Positions 2,531-19,678 of a DNA stretch of 64,000 nucleotides are shown here, piece after piece. This DNA is from Candidatus Gastranaerophilales bacterium. GTDB taxonomy: Bacteria > Cyanobacteriota > Vampirovibrionia > Gastranaerophilales > Gastranaerophilaceae. The position numbers and the translations under genes were made by a program. Numbering within the stretch: the first letter of the stretch is position 1; the number at the start of each line of letters is the position of its first letter. The DNA lies in contig CALUXU010000005.1 of the NCBI GenBank assembly GCA_944324825.1, forward strand, positions 66,264-130,263, read 5' to 3'. Below the pieces are notes generated by a model, which searched no databases, was not told the origin of the DNA, and saw nothing but the letters and a program-made list of their open reading frames with translations.

Positions 2531-4306
2531 ATGGAAAACCAAGTTGAGACAATCAAATACACCCCTGAGAAGGCAAAACAAAATGCTCTTGCAAAACTTG
2601 ATTTAATCCGCAAATGGCAGGAGTTTCGCCGTAAAGCTGTCAACAAACTTCAAGCAGACTATGATTTTGTCAAACTGCATAATAGTTCAGATTCTTACCT
2701 TTTCAATGTTTTAGGTAAAATCTCTCGAGGAAGCTTGCATCGTTGGAAAGCAAGTTTAGACGGAACAGAGGATTACACAAGGCTAATTCCTAATTACAAG
2801 TACGTTTCTGTGAACGAATACAGAACATGTCTAACGGATGAAGAAATCAAAATATTTATGGGCTTGCTCCTGCACCCGAATAGAATTTGTATCGGCAAAG
2901 CAATAGCACTTACAAAATATAAGCTCAAAGAGCAAGGTCAAAGTTTTATCCCTGCGGATATTACGTTTAGACGCTACGCAAAATGGTTTAAGGACAATAA
3001 TTACGACAAATGGGTGCTTGCTCGAGACGGCGAAAAAGCACTTTCAGACAAAGTTGAACCTTATATTAAAAGGGACGCTAGCCTGCTTGATGTCGGGGAT
3101 ATTTTAGTTGCAGACGGGCATAAACTGGCGTTTCAAGTGATTAATCCCTTTACGGGCAAGCCTTGTCGAGCAACTTTGGTCGGATTTTTAGACTGGAAAT
3201 CAACAGCACTGGTCGGGTATGAAATTATGCTTGAAGAAAACACCCAATGTATTGCAAGTGCCCTAAGAAACGCAATAATAAACCTTGATATGATACCTAA
3301 AATTGTCTATCAAGATAACGGCAGAGCATTTAGAGCAAAATACTTCACAGATGATAAAGGATTTGGAGAATTAGGCTTTTACGGGCTCTATGCAAAACTC
3401 GGGATTGAAACGGTATTTGCAAGACCATATAATGCAAGGTCAAAGGTTATTGAGAGGTTCTTCAAAGAATTTCAAGAAGGATTTGAAAAACTAATGCCAA
3501 GTTATGTCGGCTCATCAATTATCAACAAACCTGCGTACTTGAAACGAAACGAAATTTTTCATAAAAACTTACACCAAGATTATATCCCAACTATAGAAGA
3601 AACAATCAAAATGATTGATATGTGGCTTAAGTTTAAGAACTCTCAGCCCTGCACAAATGCACCGAATATGACAATCGCAGAGGTTTTAGAAAATCGAAAT
3701 AAACAGAATATTGATAAAAGCTTGCTTGACGATTTGATGTTGGCAACTGAAGTCAAAACAATTCAGCGAAACGGCGTAAGGTTCTTAAATTGTGACTATT
3801 TTGACGAAAGATTATACGGGTTAAGAGGAAAAGTTTTAGTAAAATACAACCTGTTTGATTTAACTAATGTGAAAGTTTTTACCCCGAAAGGTGAATATTT
3901 ATGCACAGCAGAGCGAGTAACCGAAACTCACCCGATGGCAAAGATTTTAGGAACAGTTGAGGATCTAGAGGATTACAAACAAAAAATCCAAAAACAACAA
4001 AAACTTAAACGGAAAACGATAAATTCGGTTAAAAAATTATTAACTGATGATGAAATAAAATTTTTAGAATGTCATTCTGAATTTATTTCAGAATCTGCAA
4101 CACCAGAGACCCTGAAACAAGTTCAGGGTGGCAATAAGTTCAAGCCTCGTTCAAATGGTGTTCAAAAAATAAACAACGGAGAAAAGTCTCTCCCGATTTT
4201 CAAAAACAATTCAGAAAAATATGAATATTTGATAAAACATAACCCAAGCGACACTTGGATTGCAGAATTTAAACAAACAAAGGAGTATAAACTGTTATAT
4301 GAATAG
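2531..4306 (+). CDS. DDE (rve-type) transposase, MuA/TnsB/TniA-like
   Basis: Candidate DDE triad VADGH / YQDNGRAF / VIERFFKEF. N-terminal HTH region, and a C-terminal barrel like the Mu transposase C domain (NGVRFLNCDYF...VLVKYNLFDLTNVKVF). Start moved from 2495 to ATG 2531 (MENQVE...), which has AAGGA upstream. Confidence 0.8.
   Translation: MENQVETIKYTPEKAKQNALAKLDLIRKWQEFRRKAVNKLQADYDFVKLHNSSDSYLFNVLGKISRGSLHRWKASLDGTEDYTRLIPNYKYVSVNEYRTCLTDEEIKIFMGLLLHPNRICIGKAIALTKYKLKEQGQSFIPADITFRRYAKWFKDNNYDKWVLARDGEKALSDKVEPYIKRDASLLDVGDILVADGHKLAFQVINPFTGKPCRATLVGFLDWKSTALVGYEIMLEENTQCIASALRNAIINLDMIPKIVYQDNGRAFRAKYFTDDKGFGELGFYGLYAKLGIETVFARPYNARSKVIERFFKEFQEGFEKLMPSYVGSSIINKPAYLKRNEIFHKNLHQDYIPTIEETIKMIDMWLKFKNSQPCTNAPNMTIAEVLENRNKQNIDKSLLDDLMLATEVKTIQRNGVRFLNCDYFDERLYGLRGKVLVKYNLFDLTNVKVFTPKGEYLCTAERVTETHPMAKILGTVEDLEDYKQKIQKQQKLKRKTINSVKKLLTDDEIKFLECHSEFISESATPETLKQVQGGNKFKPRSNGVQKINNGEKSLPIFKNNSEKYEYLIKHNPSDTWIAEFKQTKEYKLLYE
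4071..4130 (+). repeat. Two-hairpin repeat module lying in frame inside the transposase 3' region
   Basis: GTCATTCTGAATTTATTTCAGAATC + TGCAACACCAGAGACCCTGAAACAAGTTCAGGGTG. The same two-hairpin module, with covarying stem 1, occurs in non-coding DNA at 61133-61216. Confidence 0.65.
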
Positions 4307-4374
4307 CTGATTACAAGTAGTGGGTCTAAGGCGAAGCAGTACCCGTTTATTGCGAGCAACCAAGAAAGGATAAA

Positions 4375-5055
4375 ATGAAAAAAATCTTTATAAAAACTCG
4401 AAATGTAAGGAATTTTATAGGTTTAGTTGAAGCCCTAAAAAGCAAACCCAAAAACATTCCTAAAATGGGGCTTATATATGGCGAGCCGGGGCTTGGAAAA
4501 TCACAAACGGCACTTTGGCTAGCCTGCAAATATGACGGGATTTATATTCGAGCCTCAAACCTTATGACAAGCAGGTGGCTTGTTGAAGAAATTGTTAGAG
4601 AAATGGACGAACTCCCTCGGTATTTAACCTCGGACAACTTTAATGTCGTGATTAGCAAACTTATTCAAAAGCCCAAAATTATTTTTGTAGATGAAATCGA
4701 CTACTTGATGAACAATTACAAAAGTGTCGAAACCCTAAGAGATATCCACGATAAAACCGATTGTCCGATAGTCTTTGTCGGAATGAGCTTGGCTCTTAGA
4801 AAACTTGAAAGATACAAGCACCTGTATGATAGATTTAGCGAGATTGTAAAGTTTGAAACCTTTGAAATAGAAGATTTGAGTCAAATTTTTAACCAACTCT
4901 CTGAAATACCGTTTACCCCAGATTCGATAGAATATATCCACAAAAAATACAATAGGTTCAGACAAATAGTACAGCTTATAAGCAAACTTGAAACTATTGC
5001 AAAAGAAAATGGTCTAACAGAAATTACATTTGAAATTATAAAGGAACTCGTATGA
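4375..5055 (+). CDS. AAA+ transposition ATPase, MuB/TniB/TnsC-like
   Basis: Walker A GEPGLGKSQ and Walker B IIFVDEID. It lies directly downstream of the DDE transposase, the classical A-B gene order. Confidence 0.75.
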   Translation: MKKIFIKTRNVRNFIGLVEALKSKPKNIPKMGLIYGEPGLGKSQTALWLACKYDGIYIRASNLMTSRWLVEEIVREMDELPRYLTSDNFNVVISKLIQKPKIIFVDEIDYLMNNYKSVETLRDIHDKTDCPIVFVGMSLALRKLERYKHLYDRFSEIVKFETFEIEDLSQIFNQLSEIPFTPDSIEYIHKKYNRFRQIVQLISKLETIAKENGLTEITFEIIKELV

Positions 5056-5612
5056 ACATTGAAAAATTAGCTAAGAGATTAAAAGAATTTACCCTTGATG
5101 ATATTGAATTAATAGCAGAATGCGATTGCAAAACAAAACTTGAACAGCTTTTGAACAGCAATAAAATACTTTTTGAAAACGGAATTTATAAATACAATGA
5201 GGAAACGAAAACAGATGAAAATTATGAAATATTCAGCCCGCTAAAGAATAAACACCTAAAAATTAGTATAGAAGATGCAAAAGAATATTTTATGAAAAAT
5301 TATGTCGAAAAATACTGCAAATTCGAGACTTATAGAAACTATAACGCGATTTTTAATTTTAATATTATACCGTTTATAAACTGCTATTACCTGCACGAAA
5401 TTGATATTGAGTCGATAAAAGAACTTTTTAAAGTCTGCGAATTAAGACGCCTGAAACCCCGCAGAATTAAAAATACAATGGCTCTTCTAAACCAGCTGAT
5501 AAAATATTTCCAACACCTTGGAGTGATTGATAGAAGTTGCGTCTATCAGGTTAAAAAAGTACAAGACAAAAACCATTTTGGAATAGAAAACTTAATTTTT
5601 GAGGGATTTTAA
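5052..5612 (+). CDS. Hypothetical protein; C-terminal half resembles a tyrosine-recombinase core-binding (SAM-like) domain
   Basis: Start overlaps the stop of the ATPase gene (ATGA). The pattern ETYRNYNAIFNFNIIPF...LHEIDIESIKELF...RRIKNTMALLNQLIKYFQHLGVIDRS looks like an integrase N-terminal domain without a catalytic domain. This assignment is tentative. Confidence 0.5.
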   Translation: MNIEKLAKRLKEFTLDDIELIAECDCKTKLEQLLNSNKILFENGIYKYNEETKTDENYEIFSPLKNKHLKISIEDAKEYFMKNYVEKYCKFETYRNYNAIFNFNIIPFINCYYLHEIDIESIKELFKVCELRRLKPRRIKNTMALLNQLIKYFQHLGVIDRSCVYQVKKVQDKNHFGIENLIFEGF

Positions 5613-6010
5613 TGAGTAAAATGAAATTATTTAAACAAGCAGAGCAAATGTATTTAAAAGGCTCAACCGTTTGTGAAATCTCTTTAGAACTTGGGATTGC
5701 CAAAAGAACTTTGTTTTACTGGAAAAAGCAATATGATTGGGATAAAAAGCGAAAAGAATCCATGTATGATAGAGCACAATTCAAAGACGATTTGCAAAAG
5801 TTTGCCAAAAAACTAATGGAAAAAATCGCAAACAGTAATAAAACTAATAATCAGATAAACCAAGCAGAATACTATTCCCTTGTAAATATTTTGAACTTTC
5901 TCCCTGAACTGAAAGAAAACAATACTCAAACAGAAACACCCCAAATAAAAACAGAACTTTCTCCTGACTTCATCCGCCAAATCGAGTGTGAAATTTTAGG
6001 TATAGAATAA
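5612..6010 (+). CDS. Small HTH protein (terminase-small/gp27-like or transposase-HTH-like)
   Basis: Translationally coupled to the upstream gene (TAATG). HTH-like STVCEISLELGIAKRTLFYWKKQYDWDKKR. The family assignment is a guess. Confidence 0.5.
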   Translation: MSKMKLFKQAEQMYLKGSTVCEISLELGIAKRTLFYWKKQYDWDKKRKESMYDRAQFKDDLQKFAKKLMEKIANSNKTNNQINQAEYYSLVNILNFLPELKENNTQTETPQIKTELSPDFIRQIECEILGIE

Positions 6011-6017
6011 CTCCTGC

Positions 6018-6047
6018 AAATTTTTGTGCTATCCTTGTAGAAAAAGG
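6018..6047 (+). promoter_or_regulatory. Conserved upstream cassette (putative extended -10 promoter plus RBS) of the HNH gene
   Basis: AAATTTTTGTGCTATCCTTGTAGAAAAAGG, with TGC-TATCCT as a possible TGn-extended -10. It is nearly identical to 6751-6779 upstream of the Mrr gene. Confidence 0.45.
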
Positions 6048-6053
6048 TAAAAT

Positions 6054-6686
6054 ATGGAAGATAAGTTTTTACAATATATTCAATCAAGACCAAAATCCGC
6101 AAAGTCTGGTTCTAATTATGTTAGTGGAATAAATAGTATTTCTAAAAAATTCTTAGATCAAAATCTTTTTTCTATTACATCTCCTAAAATTGTTGAAAAA
6201 ATAATATTTGATTTAGAAAATAATGATAAATTCATGACCGAAAATTCAAAAGGGCATAATATGTACCTTCGTGCGATTAAGCATTATAAAAATTTTCTAT
6301 CTGAAAATCAAGATTTGAATAGAAATAAAATATCAAGTTTATCTGAAAAGCAAATTACAAATATGCCTTATTATGAAGGTAATACAATAGAAAGAACTAT
6401 TATACAAAAATCTAGAAATAGGAATATTGTTAAACAGGTCAAAGAAGGAGATAATTATACTTGCAAGGGATGTGGTTTTTATTTCTACAATAAAATTGTA
6501 GAGGTACATCATTTAATTCCTCTTTCTAATATGGATGGAGAAAAACAGATAAAAAAAGAGGACTTAATTACTCTTTGTCCAAATTGTCACGCAATAGCTC
6601 ATTTATTGTTAAATGAAGATGAAAAATACAAAAATCGTAAAATTTTAATTGATAAGTTGCAGGAAATTTATAAGTTAAATAAATAA
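6054..6686 (+). CDS. HNH endonuclease
   Basis: CKGCGFYF...VEVHHLIPLSNMDG...LITLCPNCHAIAH gives the CxxC...HH...CxxCH HNH/zinc motif. The N-terminal ~130 aa are of unknown function. Confidence 0.8.
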   Translation: MEDKFLQYIQSRPKSAKSGSNYVSGINSISKKFLDQNLFSITSPKIVEKIIFDLENNDKFMTENSKGHNMYLRAIKHYKNFLSENQDLNRNKISSLSEKQITNMPYYEGNTIERTIIQKSRNRNIVKQVKEGDNYTCKGCGFYFYNKIVEVHHLIPLSNMDGEKQIKKEDLITLCPNCHAIAHLLLNEDEKYKNRKILIDKLQEIYKLNK

Positions 6687-6750
6687 CTTTCTTTGTTAAA
6701 TATTGATACAACGATACGAAAAGAGATTTAGGTAGAGAATAAGTCTCCAT

Positions 6751-6779
6751 AAATTTTTGTGCTATGCTTAAGAAAAAGG
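6751..6779 (+). promoter_or_regulatory. Conserved upstream cassette (second copy) of the Mrr gene
   Basis: AAATTTTTGTGCTATGCTTAAGAAAAAGG. The first 15 nt are identical to 6018-6032, and it has the same position relative to the start codon. Confidence 0.45.
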
Positions 6780-6788
6780 AGTTTTTGA

Positions 6789-7682
6789 ATGGCAATACCT
6801 AAATATGATGAATTAATGATACCAGTTTTAGAAGTTTTATCCGATAAAAAAGAACATCGAATTACGGAAATTGTTGATATTTTAGCAAAGAAACTAAAAT
6901 TAACAAATGAAGAATTGGAGGAAAAAATTTCTAGTGGTAGTAATAAATTCGCAGGTAGAGTAGGTTGGGCTAGAACATATTTAAAAGCTGCTAAATTGAT
7001 AGATTCAACTAGAAGAGCCTATTTTGTTATTAATGAAAGAGGAGAAAAAGCCCTTCAAGATAAACCTAAAGATTTATTAAATTATCTAAAACAATATAAT
7101 GAATTTTTAGAATTTGTTAAACCTAACAAAGATGAAAAAAACTCTGATAAAAACATACAAGAAAGTAAAACTGATACTCCAGACGAAATGTTAGCACATG
7201 CTCAGGATATGTATAAAGAAAATCTACAAACAGAATTGCTAACAAGATTAAAACAAATTGACCCGGTAAGATTTGAACAAATAGTTCTTCAACTTATGGA
7301 AAAAATGAATTATGGTGTCGGTTCAATGACAAAAATGAGTCATGATGGTGGAGTAGACGGCATAATTGATGAAGATGAATTGGGATTAGAAAAAATCTAC
7401 CTGCAAGCTAAAAGATACTCAGACAATAAAGTTAATGAAAAAGAAATGCAAAATTTCGCAGGGGCTCTAGGCTGTTCTCCGGTAAGAAAAGGAGTATTTA
7501 TAACAACCAGCTTCTTTGATGAAAGAGCTAAAAAGAAAGCCGCATCTGTTCAAGGTAAAATTATACGATTAGTAGACGGTGAAGAATTAACAAAATTGAT
7601 GATTAGGCATAATTTAGGTGTACAAGTTAAAACTAAAATCGAAATCAAGAAGATTGATGAAGATTTCTTTAGTGAAGAATAA
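6789..7682 (+). CDS. mrr: Mrr-family (type IV, modification-dependent) restriction endonuclease
   Basis: N-terminal winged-helix region (IPKYDELMIPVLEVL...) followed by the Mrr catalytic signature HDGGVDGIIDEDELGLEKIYLQAKRY. Confidence 0.85.
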   Translation: MAIPKYDELMIPVLEVLSDKKEHRITEIVDILAKKLKLTNEELEEKISSGSNKFAGRVGWARTYLKAAKLIDSTRRAYFVINERGEKALQDKPKDLLNYLKQYNEFLEFVKPNKDEKNSDKNIQESKTDTPDEMLAHAQDMYKENLQTELLTRLKQIDPVRFEQIVLQLMEKMNYGVGSMTKMSHDGGVDGIIDEDELGLEKIYLQAKRYSDNKVNEKEMQNFAGALGCSPVRKGVFITTSFFDERAKKKAASVQGKIIRLVDGEELTKLMIRHNLGVQVKTKIEIKKIDEDFFSEE

Positions 7683-7706
7683 TTTTAAAAATATAGGTGT
7701 TACTAG

Positions 7707-8123
7707 ATGATTGAATTTTTTCATTCACAATTATTCGGAATAATATTGGGGGCTATATTAACTGGCGGTTTTTCTTTTTTAAGTTGTATATATAAAAGCG
7801 CTAGAGATGAAAAACTATATTTAAAACGAAAAAGAGAGTTATTGTATCAAAAAATGTATAATTTCTCAATGAGAATGGAACAAGATTTTAGAATAAAAAA
7901 TAAACCCATTTTGTCAAAAGCAACAAAAGATGTATGGAACGAAATCCAAGACGAAAGTATTTTTGGAAAACATGAAACAATGGAAACTTTTTATGATTTA
8001 TATGAAGATTTATATAATAGTTTTGAGTCTTGTTCAAATGAAATTGATCGACATTGTAAAAACAATGAATCAATTCTAAAGTTTTATGCACATATAAAAA
8101 ATGAACTTGGAATTAAAGATTGA
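7707..8123 (+). CDS. Hypothetical protein with one N-terminal TM helix
   Basis: 138-aa ORF. LFGIILGAILTGGFSFLSCIY is followed by a charged helical region. It lies immediately downstream of mrr. Confidence 0.5.
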   Translation: MIEFFHSQLFGIILGAILTGGFSFLSCIYKSARDEKLYLKRKRELLYQKMYNFSMRMEQDFRIKNKPILSKATKDVWNEIQDESIFGKHETMETFYDLYEDLYNSFESCSNEIDRHCKNNESILKFYAHIKNELGIKD

Positions 8124-8145
8124 TAGTGGTTATAGTAATTTACTT

Positions 8146-8328
8146 TTAATATACTTCGATATTATTAAGCTCTATATTGTATCTTTTTCCATACTTATCA
8201 ACGCAAGTCGCATAATCTATCTCTGCATCGGCGAACTTGTTTTTCCAAATACAAATCAGCAATCCGATTTCTTGTGTTTTTAAATTCAAAACCTTTGTGC
8301 CATAAAGTGCATAGTCTTTTTCTGTCAT
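8146..8328 (-). CDS. Hypothetical small protein (60 aa)
   Basis: ORF whose ATG overlaps the stop of the upstream 71-aa ORF (TAATG), giving a two-gene mini-operon. Confidence 0.4.
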   Translation of the reverse strand: MTEKDYALYGTKVLNLKTQEIGLLICIWKNKFADAEIDYATCVDKYGKRYNIELNNIEVY

Positions 8329-8543
8329 TATTCTTTCCTTTCAAACATCAAGTCTGAATAGATATCATCAGGCTTTTGTGGGGCTATTAAAAACTCTTTC
8401 ATAAATACAAACCTTTCTCCGCAAGTGTTTTCACAAATTACAGTGTCGAAATTGTAGAAGCAAATTACTTTGTAATACTCATTATCAGAGCTCTTAAAAC
8501 CTTTAATCTTTTTAAGCTTGTATTTTTTGCCTAATTCAATCAT
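8328..8543 (-). CDS. Hypothetical small protein (71 aa)
   Basis: ORF with GAGG upstream (AAGAGGTAACAATG), translationally coupled to 8146..8328. Confidence 0.45.
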   Translation of the reverse strand: MIELGKKYKLKKIKGFKSSDNEYYKVICFYNFDTVICENTCGERFVFMKEFLIAPQKPDDIYSDLMFERKE

Positions 8544-8682
8544 TGTTACCTCTTATCAGCAATGACATTCATCACTCTAAACCCTTTAAATATCAAGCAA
8601 ACTATTGCAAAATGTATCATTCAGACACAATTCATCTTTCGAACACTATTTAAACGTTAATAAAACAGGTTTTAAATGCCAC

Positions 8683-8907
8683 TTAAAAATTCTTATTGTC
8701 AGGATAATTTATAAAATAAGCGTTTACAGTATCAGTATCTCGCCTTAAATTCTCAACTAGTGGAGTAAGATTATACAACTCTTCAATTTCTTGTTGAGTC
8801 CTACAAAAATAATCAATCACAGTAGCTGTGTTATAAATCCGCTCAGCTAATTTTTCTAACTTCTTAAAATCTTTTTGTTTAATTCGATATTTCTTATTTT
8901 TACTCAT
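8683..8907 (-). CDS. Hypothetical 74-aa protein downstream of the RT
   Basis: Start moved to the ATG at 8907, preceded by AGGAGG (TTAGGAGGTCGTATG). It is on the same strand as the RT, 92 nt downstream. Confidence 0.55.
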   Translation of the reverse strand: MSKNKKYRIKQKDFKKLEKLAERIYNTATVIDYFCRTQQEIEELYNLTPLVENLRRDTDTVNAYFINYPDNKNF

Positions 8908-8999
8908 ACGACCTCCTAACACAACACAATAGCGTGAAAGTCGTAAAACACACTGAAAATTTTACATAACAACACATAAATTTGTTAATACAATTTAAA

Positions 9000-10688
9000 T
9001 TATTTTTTACTTACAAGTTCATTGTATGTTGCTAATAATTCAGAATCTGCCTGCTTTATCAAATTATCTAGTCTTTTTTTGTGATTATGTATTTGGTGTT
9101 TAAGAACAGCGGTGTCAAAAACTTTGTCAAAAGTTCTCAAAACATATGATATGAAATTACGTTTACCTAAATATGTATATCTTTCATATAATAGTCGTCG
9201 ATATAATTTTTTATGTTTATCTTGAAGAACAATTCCTTTTTTATGCATATTCTCTAGCTTTTTTTTTGCATTTAATTTCATTGCCGAAACTGCTCTTTTA
9301 GATTTTCTTAAGTAACGAGCAAGACTAGCTTCTCTAATTCTTACTTGTTCGCCATTAAAATAAAATCCAAGATATTGAAGCGGATTAGTCATAATTTTTT
9401 TAATATTAGTAAAGTCATAACATTGACTTTTTGAGTAATCGTCCCACGCTTCAATAGGGTGTATTGACAAAGAATTGCCTCTTTCTAAAATATATTCTTG
9501 AATTTTTTCAATAACATACTTTTTTACAGTCTCATCGTGCGGACAAATAAACATTATATCATCACAATAGCGTCGATATATTCCATTAACTTCTTCTGCC
9601 AAATTTTTCATATTTATATCAAACGGTATCATGTAAATATTAGAAAGAAGTGCTGACATAGAGGTCCCTTGCGGAATTCCATATGGAAATTTATCATTTA
9701 ATCCAGGATTTTTATGAAATTTTTTATGCTCAGTATTTTTATATGTCTCTTTATACCATTCCTTAAATTTCCTAAACTGTTTAGCATTATAAAAAAGAAT
9801 TTTAGGTATTTGTTTATATATTTTTTTATTACATTTACAACAAGCATCTAAAGTACATTTGTGTTTGTTTATATAGTAACAAATTTCTTTCAAATCAATA
9901 AAACAATACTTTGTCAATGATCTATAAATATTTAAGTGGTCAGTAGGTAACTTGTCAGTATTTAGTACTTTTGTCCATTCTTGATATAATTTTTCGTGGT
10001 CTATATAATCATAAAAACTATGAATATCAAAGGCTAATGCATAACAATTATTTTTACGTTTTTTTATATGTTCAAAAATTTCCCTCGCCATCGTGCAATT
10101 ATTGGGGCTAATTTCACTATCTTTTATGTATATTTTAGGAAGTGTACGATAAGCAAGTATTTCCGGACCTAAATTGAGCTCTTTTAATTTTTGTTCATAT
10201 TTTTCATATAATAATTTTGCATAATAAGAATAAATATACCCATCAATATGAGCAGCATACCTTATCGGACGCTTTTTTATAATACCCTTTTCTTTTAAAT
10301 TCTTTAAAATTTTATTACAACTTTCGAGTTCGGGACCAGATAATTCTTTTGATTTTTTTTCATAATATTTGATTTTGTTTATTATATTTGCTCTTCGTTC
10401 TTTTATATCGAAAGCTATAAAAGGATAAAATGCGTGTGTTGCAATTTTATCTGGAGAACTTAAGTAATCTCTTAAAGATTCTATATGTTGTTTAATTTTT
10501 TTTTGAGCATCAGGAGATATCTTATAAGTTGATTTTGTTTTAGAGTTCACTTTTGTTATATAACGAACAAGAGTAAAAGGTCTATCAAAGTGAGCATAGC
10601 TTTTTTGTACAAAAGATGGAATTTTACTACATATTTGATTATTAATTGTATTTTTTAGCCTATCATATTCTTTTTGTTTCTTTTTCAT
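9000..10688 (-). CDS. Reverse transcriptase, orphan Abi/DRT-like (unclassified)
   Basis: RT motifs occur in order: KKRPIRYAAHIDGYIY, ALAFDIHSFYDYIDH (A), YGIPQGTSMSALLSNIYM (B), RYCDDIMFIC (C; YCDD at 9558-9569) and LQYLGFYF. RBS AAGAGGA lies upstream of the ATG. Confidence 0.9.
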   Translation of the reverse strand: MKKKQKEYDRLKNTINNQICSKIPSFVQKSYAHFDRPFTLVRYITKVNSKTKSTYKISPDAQKKIKQHIESLRDYLSSPDKIATHAFYPFIAFDIKERRANIINKIKYYEKKSKELSGPELESCNKILKNLKEKGIIKKRPIRYAAHIDGYIYSYYAKLLYEKYEQKLKELNLGPEILAYRTLPKIYIKDSEISPNNCTMAREIFEHIKKRKNNCYALAFDIHSFYDYIDHEKLYQEWTKVLNTDKLPTDHLNIYRSLTKYCFIDLKEICYYINKHKCTLDACCKCNKKIYKQIPKILFYNAKQFRKFKEWYKETYKNTEHKKFHKNPGLNDKFPYGIPQGTSMSALLSNIYMIPFDINMKNLAEEVNGIYRRYCDDIMFICPHDETVKKYVIEKIQEYILERGNSLSIHPIEAWDDYSKSQCYDFTNIKKIMTNPLQYLGFYFNGEQVRIREASLARYLRKSKRAVSAMKLNAKKKLENMHKKGIVLQDKHKKLYRRLLYERYTYLGKRNFISYVLRTFDKVFDTAVLKHQIHNHKKRLDNLIKQADSELLATYNELVSKK

Positions 10689-10708
10689 AAATCCTCTTAT
10701 TTAGCACG

Positions 10709-10746
10709 GAAGACACTCAGATTCGTTCATCTATGTGAGTGTCTTC
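10709..10746 (-). promoter_or_regulatory. Perfect 11-bp-stem hairpin in the RT 5' leader
   Basis: GAAGACACTCA (10709-10719) pairs with TGAGTGTCTTC (10736-10746) around a 16-nt loop. It ends 20 nt before the RT start codon and has no U tract, so it is not a terminator. Confidence 0.6.
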
Positions 10747-10845
10747 ACAAACTTAAGCCCTAAAAGAGCTAATTTCTTTGACTATTCAATTTGGTTTACC
10801 TGCTTTTAAACCTCATATCCCTGTCAGCAACGAGTTTATACACTA

Positions 10846-10854
10846 TGTTATAAT
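10846..10854 (+). promoter_or_regulatory. Extended -10 promoter element (TGTTATAAT) for the small plus-strand ORF
   Basis: TG-T-TATAAT at 10846-10854, about 16 nt upstream of AGGAGG (10870-10875). Confidence 0.55.
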
Positions 10855-10884
10855 GATAAATATAACCTTAGGAGGAATATTCTT

Positions 10885-11037
10885 ATGATGTTAATGCAAA
10901 CTCTAATTCAGAACCTGCTGGTACATCACCAGTCAATCCTTAACCTTCTTGTAAAGATAATGCTCTGCATTATACTTTACATAGTTTATTTACTCCCCAC
11001 TTGCCTAATTAGTAATACTAACCAACAAATGGCATGA
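10885..11037 (+). CDS. Unannotated 50-aa hydrophobic peptide (type I toxin-like or small membrane effector)
   Basis: My translation: MMLMQTLIQNLLVHHQSILNLLVKIMLCIILYIVYLLPTCLISNTNQQMA*. AGGAGG sits 9 nt before the ATG, downstream of the extended -10. It is below the 60-aa cutoff of the ORF track. Confidence 0.55.
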   Translation: MMLMQTLIQNLLVHHQSILNLLVKIMLCIILYIVYLLPTCLISNTNQQMA

Positions 11038-11077
11038 TAATAATACTACAAACTTAGTGAATTTAGAAAGAATTTAA

Positions 11078-12949
11078 CTATTTTTTAATATTTGAATCTG
11101 GAGTTAACCCTTTTCTTCTCATAAAGAGTATTCTATCCAACAAATCACTATCGTAAAATCTTTCTTTACTTTTACTCCACATTTTGAAATCAGCTATCAG
11201 TTCAGAATTTGAACAAGTTAAATTGTTATTCAAACGATTTTTCCAAACTGCATATAACGTTGCTATAGACTCACAAAAATCTGAATTTTTCCCCTTAAAA
11301 AGATCCATTAATTTATCTATTTTTGATAGACTTCCTGCAAACACATCATTGTACAATGTTTTGATTTCATGACAATTTTCTAAAGGAAGATATTTGGTAA
11401 TTTCAACAGAACCGTTCGTTACTTTCTGAACATCAAACCATTTTTTTATTTTTAAAATATCTTCAACCTCATATCTTGATTTTGCATCATATGGTCCTGC
11501 TGCTTCTTTTTTATATTTCCCATTTAGAGTGATACCTAGATGAGTTTCACAAAGATATAGAATTTTTTCTAATTTTACAGCGCCAAAATACTTTTCTTCA
11601 TGCATTTCATTAATAATCTTTGCACTCAAGACAGCTCTTTTATAATTTAAGTCAATAATTTCATTTGAATTCTCTTTTTGAGTAAAATAGTTTTGCAGTA
11701 TAGATTGAAATAACTCAGAAGATGATTTCTGTGCAATACTGTTCTTAATTTCTAATTCTTCACATATTTGCATTAATTTATCCACATTAGTGACAATTCT
11801 CTTTTGTTCTGCTAATGGAGGAAGAGGAAGTAAATATGCTATAATTTTTTCTCTGGAAATATTTGGTTGAGCACCCCCGTCACCTCTTTTTCTTAGGTTA
11901 TCCCTTTCAGAAAGCAAATAATAAAATAAAAATTTAGTTTCTATTTCTTGGAAAGCAATACAGGCACAGCAAGCTTGGTTTGTTGTCGCTGGAATTGTTA
12001 AAATCCCAAGTTTTCCAATAGTTGCCCCATACATAGCAATAAGCAGTGAACCTATTGGTTTTATCTTTACAGATGTTTGTTCTAGTGCTAATTCAGTTAT
12101 TTTTTCAGGTATCTCTGTAATAAAACTGTCATTTAAATCTCCTGTTTTTAGCCAAGGAATTGTTCCATTAAAATAATAGTCTGTTCTTGCTCTATTGGGT
12201 GTTGAACCAGCACCCCAATCACCTATATCGCCAAGTCTTACCCATTGCCAGCCTTGCGGAAGGTCGTATGGGATTTCGTCCTGGGTGATTGAGGGTAGAG
12301 ATTTTTCTTTTTTGATTTTGCCGTCTTTTATTAGTTGTTCTTTTTCAGCTTTTATGCGTTTTAAAAGTTCTGATGCAGGTTCATCTTGAGGATTTTGCTC
12401 GACAAGTTTTCCTTGGACTGCGTATTGCAAAATGGATGTTCTTAAATCTGTAATATAATTATTCTGTTCTTGATATTTTTGGTTTATTTTTTTTAACTCA
12501 ATTTGTGATTTTTTAATAGTATTTACCACTTTGACTTGTTGCTCAATTTTTGGAATCTCTATTGTAATTGTTTTTATAGAATTAATTGTTAGTGATACAT
12601 TAGCAGCACCTTTCATTAAAGGAACAATTTTGCTATCTTTGTAAAAAGTTAAATAATAATACAAATATTCTGCATTTAAGAGATTTTCGTCATTAGGAAT
12701 TACAGCGGCTAATATATTTCCAAGAGCGAATTTCCCCTCTTGATAATGCAAACGCTTTAAACTTGCATGTCCATGTCCTGTCGAAGATACCAAAGGTATA
12801 CATACTGCTTTAGCATCAAATTGAAACTCGTTACTAGATAATCTGTTTTCTGCAGTAACAACTAATGGATATTCTCCTGGTATAGCTTTTTTTATGCCAG
12901 TAGTCCCTTTTATAATAGTACAAATTTCGCCAAGTTTATATTGTTGCAT
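11078..12949 (-). CDS. hsdS: Type I R-M specificity subunit HsdS with an extra ~190-aa C-terminal domain
   Basis: Two target-recognition domains (YKLGEICTIIKGTTG...; WQWVRLGDIGDWGAGSTP...), central repeat LLKRIKAEKEQLIKDGKIKK and distal repeat LPPLAEQKRIVTNVDKLMQICEELE. About 190 further residues follow that normal HsdS proteins lack. Confidence 0.85.
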   Translation of the reverse strand: MQQYKLGEICTIIKGTTGIKKAIPGEYPLVVTAENRLSSNEFQFDAKAVCIPLVSSTGHGHASLKRLHYQEGKFALGNILAAVIPNDENLLNAEYLYYYLTFYKDSKIVPLMKGAANVSLTINSIKTITIEIPKIEQQVKVVNTIKKSQIELKKINQKYQEQNNYITDLRTSILQYAVQGKLVEQNPQDEPASELLKRIKAEKEQLIKDGKIKKEKSLPSITQDEIPYDLPQGWQWVRLGDIGDWGAGSTPNRARTDYYFNGTIPWLKTGDLNDSFITEIPEKITELALEQTSVKIKPIGSLLIAMYGATIGKLGILTIPATTNQACCACIAFQEIETKFLFYYLLSERDNLRKRGDGGAQPNISREKIIAYLLPLPPLAEQKRIVTNVDKLMQICEELEIKNSIAQKSSSELFQSILQNYFTQKENSNEIIDLNYKRAVLSAKIINEMHEEKYFGAVKLEKILYLCETHLGITLNGKYKKEAAGPYDAKSRYEVEDILKIKKWFDVQKVTNGSVEITKYLPLENCHEIKTLYNDVFAGSLSKIDKLMDLFKGKNSDFCESIATLYAVWKNRLNNNLTCSNSELIADFKMWSKSKERFYDSDLLDRILFMRRKGLTPDSNIKK

Positions 12950-12950
12950 A

Positions 12951-14378
12951 TTATCCTTTTAATTGTTCTTCAAGACGTGAAAGAATAGCATTAATCTGTT
13001 TATTATTATCTCTTATTCTTGCTATTAATTCTTGGGGAGTTTTCATAATTTTAGTTTCTGATTTATTTGGATTTTTAAAATCAAGATTATAATTATTATT
13101 TATAACATCTTCTATCGATACTCGCCAAGCAAGATCATTCTCAATTTTGTTTTTCCACCAACTTCTTATTGAATTAAATTCTTCATTTTTAATAGGATTT
13201 GTTTTTGAGTAACTTTTTAATCCATCAGGGAGTTTGTGTTCATAAAACCATATAAAATTTGTAGGTTCTCCTTTTTTAAAAAACAATAAATTTGTGCCTA
13301 CTGTTGCATAAGGTTTAAAAACAGAGTTTGGTAATCTTATAATAACTTCTAAATTACAAGTTTCAAGAAGTTCTTGTCTTATTCTTGTTTTTACACCTTC
13401 TCCAAAAAGAGAACCGTCTGGTAATACAATACCTGCACGTCCTTGTGGTTTTAACATTTTCATTATGTATACTAAAAATAAGTCAGCTGTTTCACGAGTT
13501 CTAAAACTTGCCGGAAAATTATTTTCAATACCATCTTCTTCAATACCTCCAAACGGAGGGTTTGTAACAATACAATCTACTCTATCAGCAGGTGAAATAT
13601 TATTAATCGGTTTTGATAGAGTATTATCACGTCTGATATTTATCGGAGTATCAATTCCGTGCAAAATCATGTTAGTTGTGCATAATTGATGAGGAAGCGG
13701 TTTCTTTTCTATTCCAAAGATGGAATTATTTAAAATTTCACCCTCTTTTGTTGTATCTGCTTGCTTTTTCAAGTGTTCAATCGCACAGGCTAAAAATCCG
13801 CCCGTACCACAAGCCGGGTCAAGAACTTTTTCTCCAAGTTGAGGATTAACCATATCAACAATAAATTGGGTTACTGCTCTTGGAGTGTAATATTCTCCTG
13901 CATTGCCTGCTGATTGAAGACTTTGCAAAAGCTGTTCATAAATATCATTAAAAAGATGTCTATCTTCGCTTGAATTAAAGTCAATTTCATTAATCTTATT
14001 TATAACCTGTCTGAGCAGTGTGCCTGATTTCATGTAGTTGTAAGTATCTTGAAAAATATTTCTTATAATCAATGCTTGTTGGTTAGAATCATTTTCCAGA
14101 TTTTGTAAATACGGAAATAAATCATTATTTATAAAGTCAATGAGTTCATCTCCTGTCATACCCTCATCATCTTGAGCCCAGTTTTGCCAGCGGTATTTTT
14201 CTTCAAGCGGAGATTTGTAATCATCTTTCATAACCTCTGCTTCATCTTCTTTATCGGCAAAGATTTTCAAAAACAGCATCCAAACGATCTGCGACAGTCT
14301 TTGTGCGTCGCCGTCAACGCCTGTATCCTTCCTCATTATGTCCTGTATAGCTTTTATTACACTTGATATATTTGGCAT
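12951..14378 (-). CDS. hsdM: Type I R-M DNA methyltransferase subunit HsdM
   Basis: AdoMet motif LDPACGTGGFL and catalytic VTNPPFGG, with an HsdM N-terminal helical domain. Its stop is 1 nt from the hsdS start. Confidence 0.92.
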   Translation of the reverse strand: MPNISSVIKAIQDIMRKDTGVDGDAQRLSQIVWMLFLKIFADKEDEAEVMKDDYKSPLEEKYRWQNWAQDDEGMTGDELIDFINNDLFPYLQNLENDSNQQALIIRNIFQDTYNYMKSGTLLRQVINKINEIDFNSSEDRHLFNDIYEQLLQSLQSAGNAGEYYTPRAVTQFIVDMVNPQLGEKVLDPACGTGGFLACAIEHLKKQADTTKEGEILNNSIFGIEKKPLPHQLCTTNMILHGIDTPINIRRDNTLSKPINNISPADRVDCIVTNPPFGGIEEDGIENNFPASFRTRETADLFLVYIMKMLKPQGRAGIVLPDGSLFGEGVKTRIRQELLETCNLEVIIRLPNSVFKPYATVGTNLLFFKKGEPTNFIWFYEHKLPDGLKSYSKTNPIKNEEFNSIRSWWKNKIENDLAWRVSIEDVINNNYNLDFKNPNKSETKIMKTPQELIARIRDNNKQINAILSRLEEQLKG

Positions 14379-14531: not shown

Positions 14532-14993
14532 TTATTTTTTTTCAATAAAAAATTTTATTTTTAACTCTACGTAAGTAAAGATTTTTATTCTATATTCCTG
14601 AATATTTTTATTTATTTCATTTAATATCTCATTTTGTTTTGGAGCATCAATTAACCAATTTTTCAGGCTTAATATGCAATTACCAAAACCTTCGGCTATT
14701 TCCATATCAATATAATTTGCTTGTTTCTCAATTAATTCACTATCGTTTAGATTCTCTTGATATGTTTGTGTTGTATGTTTAGAAAATACAGTTGATTCTA
14801 ATTCATAATATTGTAAATCTTGTATATATGCATTTAATGTTTCTAATAAAGTAACAAGTTTTCTTCTTTTTTGCTCATTTTTCCAAGTATTTAATGCCTT
14901 CCAAGCAGCAACAGCCATAAAACCAGTAGCCACCATCATTAAAAAAGTTGAGATTGCTGTTATAGCAGACCAAATAATATTCCATTCCATCAA
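14532..14993 (-). CDS. Hypothetical N-terminal-TM protein between hsdR and hsdM (probably frameshifted at an A8 tract)
   Basis: Start overlaps the hsdR stop (ATGA). TM helix IIWSAITAISTFLMMVATGFMAVAAW. The ORF stops right after an A8 run (plus-strand T8 at 14535-14542). The -1 frame stays open to 14390 and reads as a coiled coil. Confidence 0.55.
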   Translation of the reverse strand: MMEWNIIWSAITAISTFLMMVATGFMAVAAWKALNTWKNEQKRRKLVTLLETLNAYIQDLQYYELESTVFSKHTTQTYQENLNDSELIEKQANYIDMEIAEGFGNCILSLKNWLIDAPKQNEILNEINKNIQEYRIKIFTYVELKIKFFIEKK

Positions 14994-17464: not shown

Positions 17465-18004
17465 TTACAAATAAAAATTCCTATAAACTTCATCGATATC
17501 TTCTTGTTCGATGCCGATGTAGCGAAGTGTTACTGATGGCGAAGAGTGGTTAAAGATTTTTTGCAGGAGTACTATATCATTATATTTTTTATAATGATGA
17601 TACCCGAATGTCTTTCTCAATGTATGTGTTCCGATTCTTTCCTTCACCCCAACAGCTTGTGCTGCCTTATTCAAAATTCTATACGCCTGTGCCCTATCCA
17701 GTCTGCAATGTTTTTGTGTATAAAATAGCGGCTGCTCGGGCGGTTTATCTTTTACAAATTCTTCTATCTCCCCCTTCAAAAACCTATTGAGCGGAAATTT
17801 CTTATACTTATTCGTCTTTTTCTCTCTAATTTCAATATAATCTCGGCCCTTTACATCCCCAACATCAAGCGATAATATATCAGATATTCTAAGTCCTGTA
17901 TTTATCCCAAAACTAAAAAGCAGAGCATCTCTTGGCTTTTTTGCCAAATATTTTTTAATCTTTTGAATATCTTCTATCTTTTTTATAGGTTGTACTACAT
18001 TCAT
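17465..18004 (-). CDS. Small tyrosine recombinase (catalytic domain only, 179 aa)
   Basis: GLRISDIL (Arg I), HTLRKTFG (H-x-x-R), NHSSPSVTLRYIG (His/Tyr nucleophile region). It has no N-terminal core-binding domain. Confidence 0.85.
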   Translation of the reverse strand: MNVVQPIKKIEDIQKIKKYLAKKPRDALLFSFGINTGLRISDILSLDVGDVKGRDYIEIREKKTNKYKKFPLNRFLKGEIEEFVKDKPPEQPLFYTQKHCRLDRAQAYRILNKAAQAVGVKERIGTHTLRKTFGYHHYKKYNDIVLLQKIFNHSSPSVTLRYIGIEQEDIDEVYRNFYL

Positions 18005-18073
18005 TTTAAACTCGTCTAATTACAGACAATGATTGCTTCTTCCCTATAAAAAGTAAAGTCTAATGACACAAAA

Positions 18074-18144
18074 TTTAAACACTATTTAAACGATATTTAA
18101 ACAGCGTTCAAAAAGTGTTCAAAAATTTCAGCAATGTTCAGAAT
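18074..18144. promoter_or_regulatory. Phased direct repeats upstream of the recombinase gene
   Basis: TTTAAAC at 18074, 18085 and 18096 (11-bp phase). GTTCAAAAA at 18106 and 18117, and GTTCAGAAT at 18136. Confidence 0.5.
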
Positions 18145-18246
18145 ATACTTCCACCTGCAAAAATCTATTTTATCCTACCTCTATACATTTACCCCCAAAA
18201 TACAACACAACTTCATTTTGTTGCATTTTTCAATTTGTTAAATGTT

Positions 18247-18303
18247 GGATAATATATTATCTAAATATTGACTTTTTAGTAAAAATAGTATAATATATTA
18301 TCC
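18247..18303 (+). promoter_or_regulatory. hipBA promoter with two palindromic operator-like sites
   Basis: GGATAATATATTATCT (18247-18262) and GTATAATATATTATCC (18288-18303) bracket TTGACT (18268-18273) and TATAAT (18289-18294). The half-sites GGATA/TATCC are like HipB operators. Confidence 0.6.
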
Positions 18304-18582
18304 ATGAATGGCTTTTTCTTTAATCCTAAAACTCCTAATGATATAGCGCATGAATTGGTTGAGAAAATTAAGCAGCATCGAAAAAAGCTTAAAATTTCTC
18401 AGGCTCAACTTGCTTCAAAATCGGGTGTCAGCCTTGGTTCTATCAAAAGGTTTGAGTCCAAGTATGAAATTTCTTTGAATTCTTTTATAAAAATTCTAAT
18501 AGCTCTTAATTTAGAGCAGGATTTAGAAAATTTATTCACGCAAAAAAGCTATAACTCAATTGAGGAAGTTATAAATGGATAA
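18304..18582 (+). CDS. hipB: XRE-family HTH antitoxin (HipB-like)
   Basis: HTH KISQAQLASKSGVSLGSIKRFE. It overlaps the start of the HipA-like gene by 8 nt. Confidence 0.8.
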   Translation: MNGFFFNPKTPNDIAHELVEKIKQHRKKLKISQAQLASKSGVSLGSIKRFESKYEISLNSFIKILIALNLEQDLENLFTQKSYNSIEEVING

Positions 18583-19678
18583 ATATAAATATTTAAAAGT
18601 TTTTTATAATGATATTTTAGTTGGTACTCTGGCTAAAACTCCAGATAGAGTTGTTGCCTTTGAATATGATTTAGATTGGTTGAATAATGGGTTTAGCATT
18701 TCACCTTTTAGTTTACCGCTCATCAAGAAAGTTTTTATTCCAAAATATGACCCATTTGGTGGATTATTTGGAGTTTTTAATGGCAGTTTGCCTGATGGTT
18801 GGGGGCGGTTACTTGTTGATAGATTATTTTTGAAAAATAAAATTAATCCTGCTGAAATAGATAATCTTAATCGACTTGCTGTTGTTCAAGAATGTGGCAT
18901 GGGGGCTTTGACTTACAAGCCTGAGCATAAGTTTGAATCAGAAAATAATATTTCGGATTATGATATTCTTGCTCAAGAATGTTCAAAGATATTAGAATCA
19001 CAAAATTCAGAAAATTTGGATGAACTTTTTAAATTAGGTGGCTCATCTGGTGGTGCAAGACCAAAGATTTTGATATCTATTGATAACGAGGATTGGATTA
19101 TTAAGTTTCCATCATCCTCTGATTCTAAAAATATTGGTGAAAAAGAATATCAATATTCCCTATGTGCAAAAGATTGCGGAATAAATATGACAGAAACAAG
19201 GCTTTTTCCTTCTAAAATTTGTTCAGGATATTTTGGGATAAAAAGGTTTGATCGTAAAAACGGTAAGAAAATTCATATGATATCAGCAAGCGGACTTTTA
19301 GAGACAAGTCATAGACTTCCTAATCTTGATTACAATACATTGATGAAATTAACACTTGAACTAACAAGAAACTATCAAGATATTGAACAATTATTCAGGC
19401 TAATGTGCTTTAATGTTTTTGCACACAACAGAGATGACCATTCAAAGAATTTTTCTTTTCTTTTTAATGATACAAAAAAAGAATGGCACATATCTCCTGC
19501 GTACGATTTAACTTACAGTTTTTCATTTAATGGGGAACATGCGACAACAATTAATGGCGAGGGCAAAAATCCGACTTTAGACGATATTCTAGCCGTGGCA
19601 AAAAATATAGGACTCAAGGAAAAATTTGCAAAAGATATTGCATCAGATATTCAAGAAAAGTGCTCGAAATTATTTTAA
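18575..19678 (+). CDS. hipA: HipA-family serine/threonine kinase toxin
   Basis: HipA N-terminal coupling region (VGTLAKTPDRVVAFEYDLDWL), GGSSGGARPK, and catalytic loop HNRDDHSKNFSF. Confidence 0.88.
   Translation: MDKYKYLKVFYNDILVGTLAKTPDRVVAFEYDLDWLNNGFSISPFSLPLIKKVFIPKYDPFGGLFGVFNGSLPDGWGRLLVDRLFLKNKINPAEIDNLNRLAVVQECGMGALTYKPEHKFESENNISDYDILAQECSKILESQNSENLDELFKLGGSSGGARPKILISIDNEDWIIKFPSSSDSKNIGEKEYQYSLCAKDCGINMTETRLFPSKICSGYFGIKRFDRKNGKKIHMISASGLLETSHRLPNLDYNTLMKLTLELTRNYQDIEQLFRLMCFNVFAHNRDDHSKNFSFLFNDTKKEWHISPAYDLTYSFSFNGEHATTINGEGKNPTLDDILAVAKNIGLKEKFAKDIASDIQEKCSKLF

Follow-up and report, generated by a model that had tools for sequence, protein, structure and literature searches.

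An antisense ORF in the leader of a Gastranaerophilales DRT2 reverse transcriptase is probably the single-copy image of a neo repeat

The small open reading frame (ORF) on the plus strand between hsdS and a reverse transcriptase (RT) gene in a Candidatus Gastranaerophilales genome most likely represents, as a single genomic copy, one repeat of a DRT2 neo gene, a reading to which we assign a probability of about 0.8. All of the evidence for it is computational, and the mechanistic steps that go past the logic of the sequence were inferred from the DRT2 system of K. pneumoniae (Kpn; Tang 2024, Wilkinson 2024). The window, as the term is used here, is the whole 64,000-nt stretch of DNA that was analyzed. 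In DRT2 systems, part of an upstream noncoding RNA (ncRNA) is copied by rolling-circle reverse transcription into head-to-tail cDNA repeats, and these repeats reconstitute a promoter across their junction (PMC11100668, PMC12039810). The resulting neo gene is a stop-less ORF antisense to the ncRNA, with a unit length that is a multiple of three, a ribosome binding site (RBS) and an ATG inside the unit, and codons biased to hydrophobic residues (PMC11100668, PMC12039810). A DRT2 locus is therefore expected to carry, opposite the RT leader, an ORF furnished with expression signals. The locus described here is a divergent version of this known system, the mechanism of which has been known since 2024, and it does not constitute a new kind of system.

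The RT gene (9000-10688, minus strand) encodes 562 residues with the active-site motif YCDD (RRYCDDIMFI). The protein matched the PADLOC profile Drt2 with an E value of 1.1e-112 and was 34% identical to V. cholerae Drt2 (E = 6e-74). RVT_1 was its sole Pfam match, with no fused effector domain, and the small ORFs downstream of the gene gave no match to Pfam or PADLOC. Its close relatives are encoded by metagenome-assembled genomes of uncultured gut Candidatus Gastranaerophilales. On the other side of a 389-nt spacer lies hsdS (11078-12949, minus strand), which, together with hsdM and hsdR of a type I restriction-modification (R-M) system, is located upstream of the RT gene on the same strand; both neighbors of the small ORF are thus on the minus strand, as the sequence-only reading had it.

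The expression signals that this reading attributed to the small ORF were found where it had placed them. An extended -10 box, TGTTATAAT (10846-10854), is followed on the plus strand by AGGAGG (10870-10875), by an ATG 9 nt past this RBS (10885-10887) and, after 50 codons, by TGA (11035-11037). The product of this ORF (10885-11037) was also as claimed, MMLMQTLIQNLLVHHQSILNLLVKIMLCIILYIVYLLPTCLISNTNQQMA (MMLMQ...NQQMA), and its most hydrophobic 19-residue window, LLVKIMLCIILYIVY(TLCY), has a Kyte-Doolittle mean of 2.31. The estimate that 50 open codons would arise with a chance of roughly 2%, at about 8% stop codons, turned out to depend on the stop frequency chosen. With the window-wide stop-triplet frequency of 6.0% the probability is 4.5%, with the local frequency of 8.7% it is about 1%, and many spurious ORFs of 40-70 residues lie nearby, such that a 50-codon ORF by itself is weak evidence. 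The combination of signals is more distinctive. The composite of TGnTATAAT, up to 40 nt, AGGAGG, 5-10 nt and ATG occurs a single time when both strands of the 64-kb window are searched. Between the stops that bound it, the frame stays open for 75 codons (10810-11034).

The search of related RT loci for a small ORF in the same place, which had been proposed as a check, found the -10 box, RBS and ATG conserved across lineages: the TATAAT was kept in all lineages aligned, the ATG was at the homologous position in all of them, and the RBS was present as AGGAGG or AAGGAG in the homologous loci L005, L007 and L008. A search of 5.8 billion protein clusters found no homologue of the peptide, as would fit a gene that gene callers do not see; the result speaks against an independent toxin family.

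Opposite the ORF, the leader of the RT gene has the properties of a structured DRT2 ncRNA of about 340 nt (10700-11033, minus strand, ends approximate), upstream of the RT gene and on its strand. The spacer between hsdS and the RT gene is conserved among loci with RTs that are 48-98% identical, and the conservation of the ncRNA reaches the RT start codon. The RNAalifold consensus consists of a 5' hairpin, three template hairpins (H_A, H_B and H_C) and several scaffold hairpins. Over its 97 pairs, 91.8% of the cells were paired compared with 38-44% in slid-partner controls, and compensatory changes were seen in 27 pairs compared with 4-7 in the slid controls, a level reached by 0 of 500 shuffles. 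The z-score of the fold was -4.6. The 5' hairpin (10998-11031, minus strand; helix 1, 96% paired with 2 compensatory pairs) sits just upstream of the template and is analogous to the 5' handle, or SL1, of the Kpn ncRNA, an architecture as in Wilkinson 2024 (PMC12039810). On the same strand, H_A (10948-10983; helix 2, 94% paired with 5 compensatory pairs) holds a minus-strand TATAAT and the complement of a -35 box described below, H_B (10870-10946) is a composite of helices 4-6, and H_C (GUUAUA/UAUAAC, 10847-10866; helix 7, 98% paired) includes the complement of the -10 box. A long terminal scaffold hairpin (10709-10746, minus strand; helices 12-14) is followed by the conserved CCGUGCUAAA. The likeness of this RNA to the Kpn type, judged by eye only, lies in the 5' hairpin and in the terminal hairpin followed by ..UGCUA... 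A scan of positions 8000-13000 against Rfam 15 returned no family at E <= 1 and only sub-threshold chance matches. A long-range stem, ACUAUGU/ACAUAGU, had been considered as closing the template and was discarded, as covariation support for it was absent.

The ncRNA also bears on where the RT transcript starts. A minus-strand TATAAT does exist at 10974-10969, and it had been taken as the start of an RT transcript antisense to the RBS and the 5' half of the ORF. This assignment did not survive the structural analysis, because the box lies inside the conserved H_A hairpin and the conserved 5' hairpin extends upstream of it, which makes it an unlikely promoter. A consensus scan instead pointed to TTCACT-16-TATCAT (11061-11034, minus strand) as the probable ncRNA promoter and the better candidate of the two. 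At the place of its TATCAT, both L007 and L008 have TATAAT. The TGA of the plus-strand ORF overlaps the -10 box of this probable promoter.

Around the template hairpins, a short direct repeat delimits what we predict to be the neo unit. On the plus strand, AGTTTAT (AUAAACU in the ncRNA sense) is found at 10983-10989, the predicted end of each cDNA repeat (donor copy), and again at 10833-10839, the predicted re-annealing site for the template jump (acceptor copy). The two copies are 150 nt apart in the window, L001, L005, L006, L007 and L012, and 153 nt apart in L002 and L009; the equivalent repeat in L008 is TAAC (ncRNA GUUA), with its copies 171 nt apart. The predicted unit, TLCYNDKYNLRRNILMMLMQTLIQNLLVHHQSILNLLVKIMLCIILYIVY (10840-10989, plus strand, the minus strand being the cDNA template), is 150 nt or 50 codons long. 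It is stop-free when circularized and contains the -10 box at its start, the RBS and the ATG. Codons 1-35 of the genomic ORF fall inside the unit, and codons 36-50 (10990-11034) with the TGA lie past the point where the jump is predicted, in the stretch occupied by the 5' handle and the probable promoter of the ncRNA.

The reading frame of this unit appears to have been maintained. Units of 150, 153 and 171 nt were stop-free in every lineage, down to 55% nucleotide identity, and a stop-free unit with a length that is a multiple of three was kept in five sequence lineages. Insertions and deletions within the unit were net multiples of three (+3 in L002 and L009, +6 and -6 in L007, a net +21 in L008), whereas those in the scaffold were not (+1, runs of 8-11 nt). 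The frame is open also over the 15 codons from the junction to the ATG, through the -10 box, which reads Cys-Tyr-Asn in frame. As an ordinary gene has no need for open codons upstream of its ATG, they suggest selection beyond that on a normal gene. The GRAVY of the unit is 0.80, compared with 0.54-0.99 for published Neo units. An AlphaFold2 model of 3.7 repeats was all helical with two helices per repeat, at a low confidence (pLDDT 61, pTM 0.29) that is too weak for a claim about the fold. The predicted junction joins TACATAGTTTAT to ACACTATGTTATAAT, and the peptide predicted to span it is …LYIVY-TLCYN…; the C-terminal peptide of the genomic ORF is LLPTCLISNTNQQMA. The junction k-mers were absent from assembled contigs, as expected, and a search of viral contigs for the predicted junction and the scaffold hairpin gave no match.

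Independent support for the predicted unit comes from the promoter that joining it would create. Only when units are joined head to tail does a TTTACA element (10976-10981, plus strand) come to lie 17 nt upstream of the -10 box. The unit-to-unit joint reads CTTTACA TAGTTTAT followed directly by ACACTATGT TATAAT, that is, TTTACA-17-TATAAT with a TGn extension. The corresponding position in the chromosome reads AGCAAC, and the genome is without a -35 element there. In L008, the unit of which is 55% identical, the same junction gives a perfect TTGACA-17-TATAAT (12/12) with TGg. We performed an unbiased scan in which every circular stop-free unit was ranked by its junction in each lineage. The predicted junction ranked first in 8 of 8 lineages, with TTTACA-17-TATAAT in seven and TTGACA-17-TATAAT in L008. 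Among 3277 in-frame junction classes in the window, a distance of 150 was the only one to reach an 11/12 promoter; two classes had 7-nt microhomologies, and one of these two was at the distance of 150, between the two boxes. As a control of the method, the scan was applied to other DRT2 loci, where it recovered Neo of the published type (S. stutzeri-like, 132 nt), and several loci from gut metagenomes also gave units of 147-150 nt. With V. cholerae as a control, the promoter score alone failed to single out the known junction.

Other rules for delimiting the unit were tried and rejected. The Kpn rule, as calibrated on Table S1 of Tang et al., takes the unit from ACA-1 through the base before ACA-2, and the spacing of the two ACA motifs is therefore also the unit length. 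At this locus, 104 nt separate the conserved ACA motifs (10952-50 and 10848-46), with distances of 98, 107 and 137 nt in relatives. The rule fails because all of these distances are 2 modulo 3, and a Kpn-style unit (10849-10952, 104 nt) is out of frame in every lineage. The addition of an untemplated nucleotide to the 104-nt unit was considered and dropped, since the Kpn unit in Table S1 is exactly the ACA-to-ACA distance. These comparisons suggest that, in this Gastranaerophilales clade, neo cannot be annotated by the published ACA-to-ACA rule. A search of E. coli genomes and plasmids for a Kpn-like calibration unit yielded nothing useful. A 10-13-nt repeat of ACCTTCTTGT as both donor and acceptor was in frame only in L006 (153 nt) and in L007 and L012 (147 nt); it was out of frame in L005 (154), the window (145), L002 (148) and L009 (149), and no promoter was formed at its junction. 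Run-off to the 5' end of the ncRNA with end-to-end template switching, an idea prompted by the frame being open to the -10 box of the ncRNA promoter, was likewise set aside. The 15-24 extra open codons are only marginally unlikely, and L008 does not clearly keep the phase to the -10 box. A second 10-13-nt copy of the ACAAGAAGGUU segment, in frame with the first copy in L006 and L007 and out of frame with it in L005, sits in a scaffold hairpin of L005, L006, L007 and L012. It reads CUACAAGAAGGUU in the ncRNA sense at about 2880-2895 in L006 and 2870-2885 in L007, and which could be an alternative acceptor in these four loci. The corresponding copy in the group of the window (10798-10810) is degenerate, ACCTGCTTTTAAA, lies 145 nt away and creates a TAA at 10807-09.

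By analogy with K. pneumoniae, we propose the following course of events. The RT would copy the ncRNA segment 10989-10840 into cDNA. The finished 3' end of the cDNA (...AGTTTAT, templated by the AUAAACU beside the 5' hairpin) would re-anneal to the AUAAACU at 10839-10833, where copying would restart and thereby generate head-to-tail repeats of 150 nt. Second-strand synthesis, if triggered by phage as in the model system, would then produce a full promoter at each junction, with TTTACA, 17 nt that include the TGn, and TATAAT, while AGGAGG and ATG would be supplied by each repeat. As the 50-codon unit is stop-free and in phase, translation would be expected to yield a long hydrophobic helical repeat protein, and the infected cell would be arrested. 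The genomic frame runs on for 15 codons into the region of the 5' hairpin and promoter before it stops, which gives it the look of an ordinary 50-codon ORF. The sequence-only reading had offered a membrane effector coupled to the RT system as its fallback. This came close to the evidence, with the correction that the ORF is more probably the image of one neo repeat.

The extended -10 box, TGTTATAAT, is already present in the genome, and expression may not depend strictly on the junction. With the -10 box, RBS and ATG complete in the chromosome, a low level of a single-unit 50-residue membrane peptide might be produced, held down by the abundant antisense ncRNA. We consider it rather unlikely, as a variant worth stating, that the AUAAACU realignment in place of ACA, the extra template hairpin and such an antisense-silenced peptide together form a safety circuit resembling a type I toxin-antitoxin (TA) pair on top of neo synthesis. 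On that view, the discordance between RT and template described below would stem from exchange of the toxin cassette or from diversifying selection on it.

The RTs of DRT9, DRT10 and DRT3 make a non-coding DNA product, and the ORF could similarly be a by-product of an AT-rich structured ncRNA from which a non-coding DNA is made and nothing is translated. We regard this as improbable. In its favor, the chance of a 50-codon ORF is 1-4% here, RNA structure can account for most of the conservation, the locus L017 lacks an endless frame, and the annotation of Neo is known to be hard in divergent DRT2 clades (Tang 2024, PMC11100668). It leaves without a reason the stop-free unit of 3n nt that five lineages hold to 55% nucleotide identity, the conservation of the consensus RBS and ATG, and the consensus promoter, the two boxes of which come to be exactly 17 nt apart only when the predicted junction is formed. 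In addition, the RT is a DRT2 enzyme, not DRT9 or DRT10.

It is quite improbable, in our judgment, that the ORF is instead translated as a single copy from the chromosome, to give a 50-residue membrane effector of the RT system with no concatenation of cDNA. The ORF does have a complete RBS, ATG and stop codon, and extended -10 promoters can function without a -35 box. A single Kpn repeat, furthermore, was mildly toxic on plates (Wilkinson 2024, PMC12039810). However, a toxic effector that is made constitutively would be hard to tolerate, and the last 15 codons lie over the 5' hairpin and the stop codon over the probable ncRNA promoter, where conservation is explained at the level of RNA or DNA. 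Translation from the chromosome also leaves unexplained the 3n unit, the direct repeats and the junction -35 box, even though these are kept to L008.

Least likely is the type I TA pair favored by the sequence-only reading, in which a 50-residue membrane peptide expressed from TGTTATAAT is silenced by an antisense RNA from the minus-strand TATAAT: the peptide is indeed small and hydrophobic, its ORF is preceded by an extended -10 box and a strong RBS, and an antisense transcript overlaps it, but that antisense partner is a covarying DRT2 ncRNA of about 340 nt contiguous with the RT rather than a dedicated antitoxin sRNA, it starts upstream of the proposed promoter, which itself falls within a conserved hairpin that the conserved 5' hairpin precedes, the peptide belongs to no family and has no homologue among the protein clusters searched, all 8 of the 8 distinct aligned sequences lie directly upstream of a DRT2 RT gene and every DNA homologue found adjoins one, the indels of the unit are net multiples of three, and the pair has no role for the direct repeats, for a frame that is open ahead of the ATG or for a -35 box that depends on the junction.

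The locus resembles KpnDRT2 and its neo gene in many respects. Both have a stand-alone UG2/DRT2 RT, a structured ncRNA upstream on the same strand and an ORF antisense to that ncRNA. In both, a 5' hairpin precedes the template, the copies of a short direct repeat flank it, and the 3n unit is stop-free across the junction, with an RBS and ATG inside it. The -35 box at the end of the unit and the -10 box at its start are 17 nt apart once joined, the TATAAT is read in frame as Tyr-Asn, and the product is a hydrophobic helical repeat protein, here a predicted one. There are also differences. Realignment is at ACA in KpnDRT2 and is predicted to be at the 7-nt AUAAACU here (GUUA in L008), the ACA pair of this locus being out of frame, and the unit is 111-129 nt there and 150 nt here. 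The -10 box here is extended (TGnTATAAT), lies 9 nt from the junction and is complete in the genome. The RT exceeds those of the Kpn clade by about 135 residues and has an N-terminal extension, a 27-residue insertion and a Cys-rich insertion. The host, an uncultured gut Gastranaerophilales bacterium (Melainabacteria), represents a new phylum relative to that of KpnDRT2, and the system sits there behind a type I R-M operon.

Type I TA pairs such as hok/sok and tisB/istR also have a small hydrophobic ORF overlapped by an antisense RNA; here, the antisense transcript is large and is predicted to be bound by the RT as its template and scaffold, the peptide is without a family, and the 3n unit, the repeats and the split promoter make sense only after concatenation. 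The junction promoters of IS and transposon circles, an analogy drawn by Tang 2024, similarly have -35 and -10 ends that form a promoter only when joined, although this is brought about by circularization of DNA in those elements and, we predict, by RNA-templated concatenation of cDNA here. In DRT10, with its telomerase-like tandem repeats, and in retron msDNA, an RT copies a cis-encoded ncRNA template repeatedly or specifically. The product in these systems is a non-coding DNA that acts with separate effector proteins, whereas the product here is predicted to be a gene.

Even in a phylum distant from the Proteobacteria of the model systems, raw sequence would suffice to recognize a gene of the neo type, which exists only after reverse transcription. 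The broader rule that works here, a direct repeat, a stop-free circular unit of 3n nt and -35 and -10 boxes at 17 nt only across the junction, also recovers Neo-like units in other metagenomic DRT2 loci. It therefore offers a practical route to the annotation of neo in divergent DRT2 clades, where Tang et al. met difficulty (PMC11100668), and for the present locus it has yielded a concrete junction sequence that can be tested.

When applied more widely, the junction rule predicts Neo-like units of 126-150 nt in L018, L023, L064, L070 and L073 (upstream of the RT at 2001), with 12/12 junction promoters in L064, L070 and L073 and an 8-nt microhomology in L073. In L017 (43% RT identity; 1351-2030), joining AGTTCAAC to AGATAATGG forms TTGACA-17-TATAAT with an RBS and a TTG start. 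An endless ORF is absent from this 170-nt unit, which has many stops, and judging from its sequence L017 would encode a short hydrophobic peptide per repeat.

The relatedness of the template does not follow that of the RT. Between L002 (2306-2653) and the window (10689-11033), the RTs are 98.5% identical at the nucleotide level and the neo units 81%, with a 3-nt in-frame insertion. Between L005 (2647-3000) and the window, the RTs are 72% identical, the ncRNAs 86% and the neo units 92.7%. This discordance suggests either exchange of cassettes or diversifying selection on the template. In L006, the RT frame is broken (ORFs at 2908-3399 and 3532-4689, with a gap at 3399-3532), from either a pseudogene or an assembly error, and the ncRNA and neo unit of this locus are intact.

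The surroundings of the locus were also examined. HsdS has a C-terminal extension of about 190 residues past its two target-recognition domains (residues ~430-623; window 11081-11662), which is without a Pfam match and is covered by one PADLOC long-HsdS profile. DRT2 directly follows an hsdS-like gene with such an extension in all homologous loci. An ORF of 153 residues with a TTG start (14532-14993, minus strand) lies between hsdM and hsdR and overlaps the hsdR stop; its only match was a sub-threshold one to Maf1. Around the locus (4375-8123 and 17465-19678) is a defense or mobile island with genes for a TniB-like AAA ATPase, a terminase-5/HTH protein, an HNH endonuclease, an Mrr restriction enzyme, a short integrase-family protein (179 residues) and a HipA kinase toxin. 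As for the RT itself, its additions relative to V. cholerae Drt2 comprise the N-terminal extension and the 27-residue insertion at about residues 99-125. The Cys-rich insertion (window 9831-9905, residues ~262-286) is also missing from V. cholerae Drt2. Its residues C270, C278, C283 and C286 are invariant in homologues that are 48-98% identical, and their arrangement looks like a zinc-binding motif.
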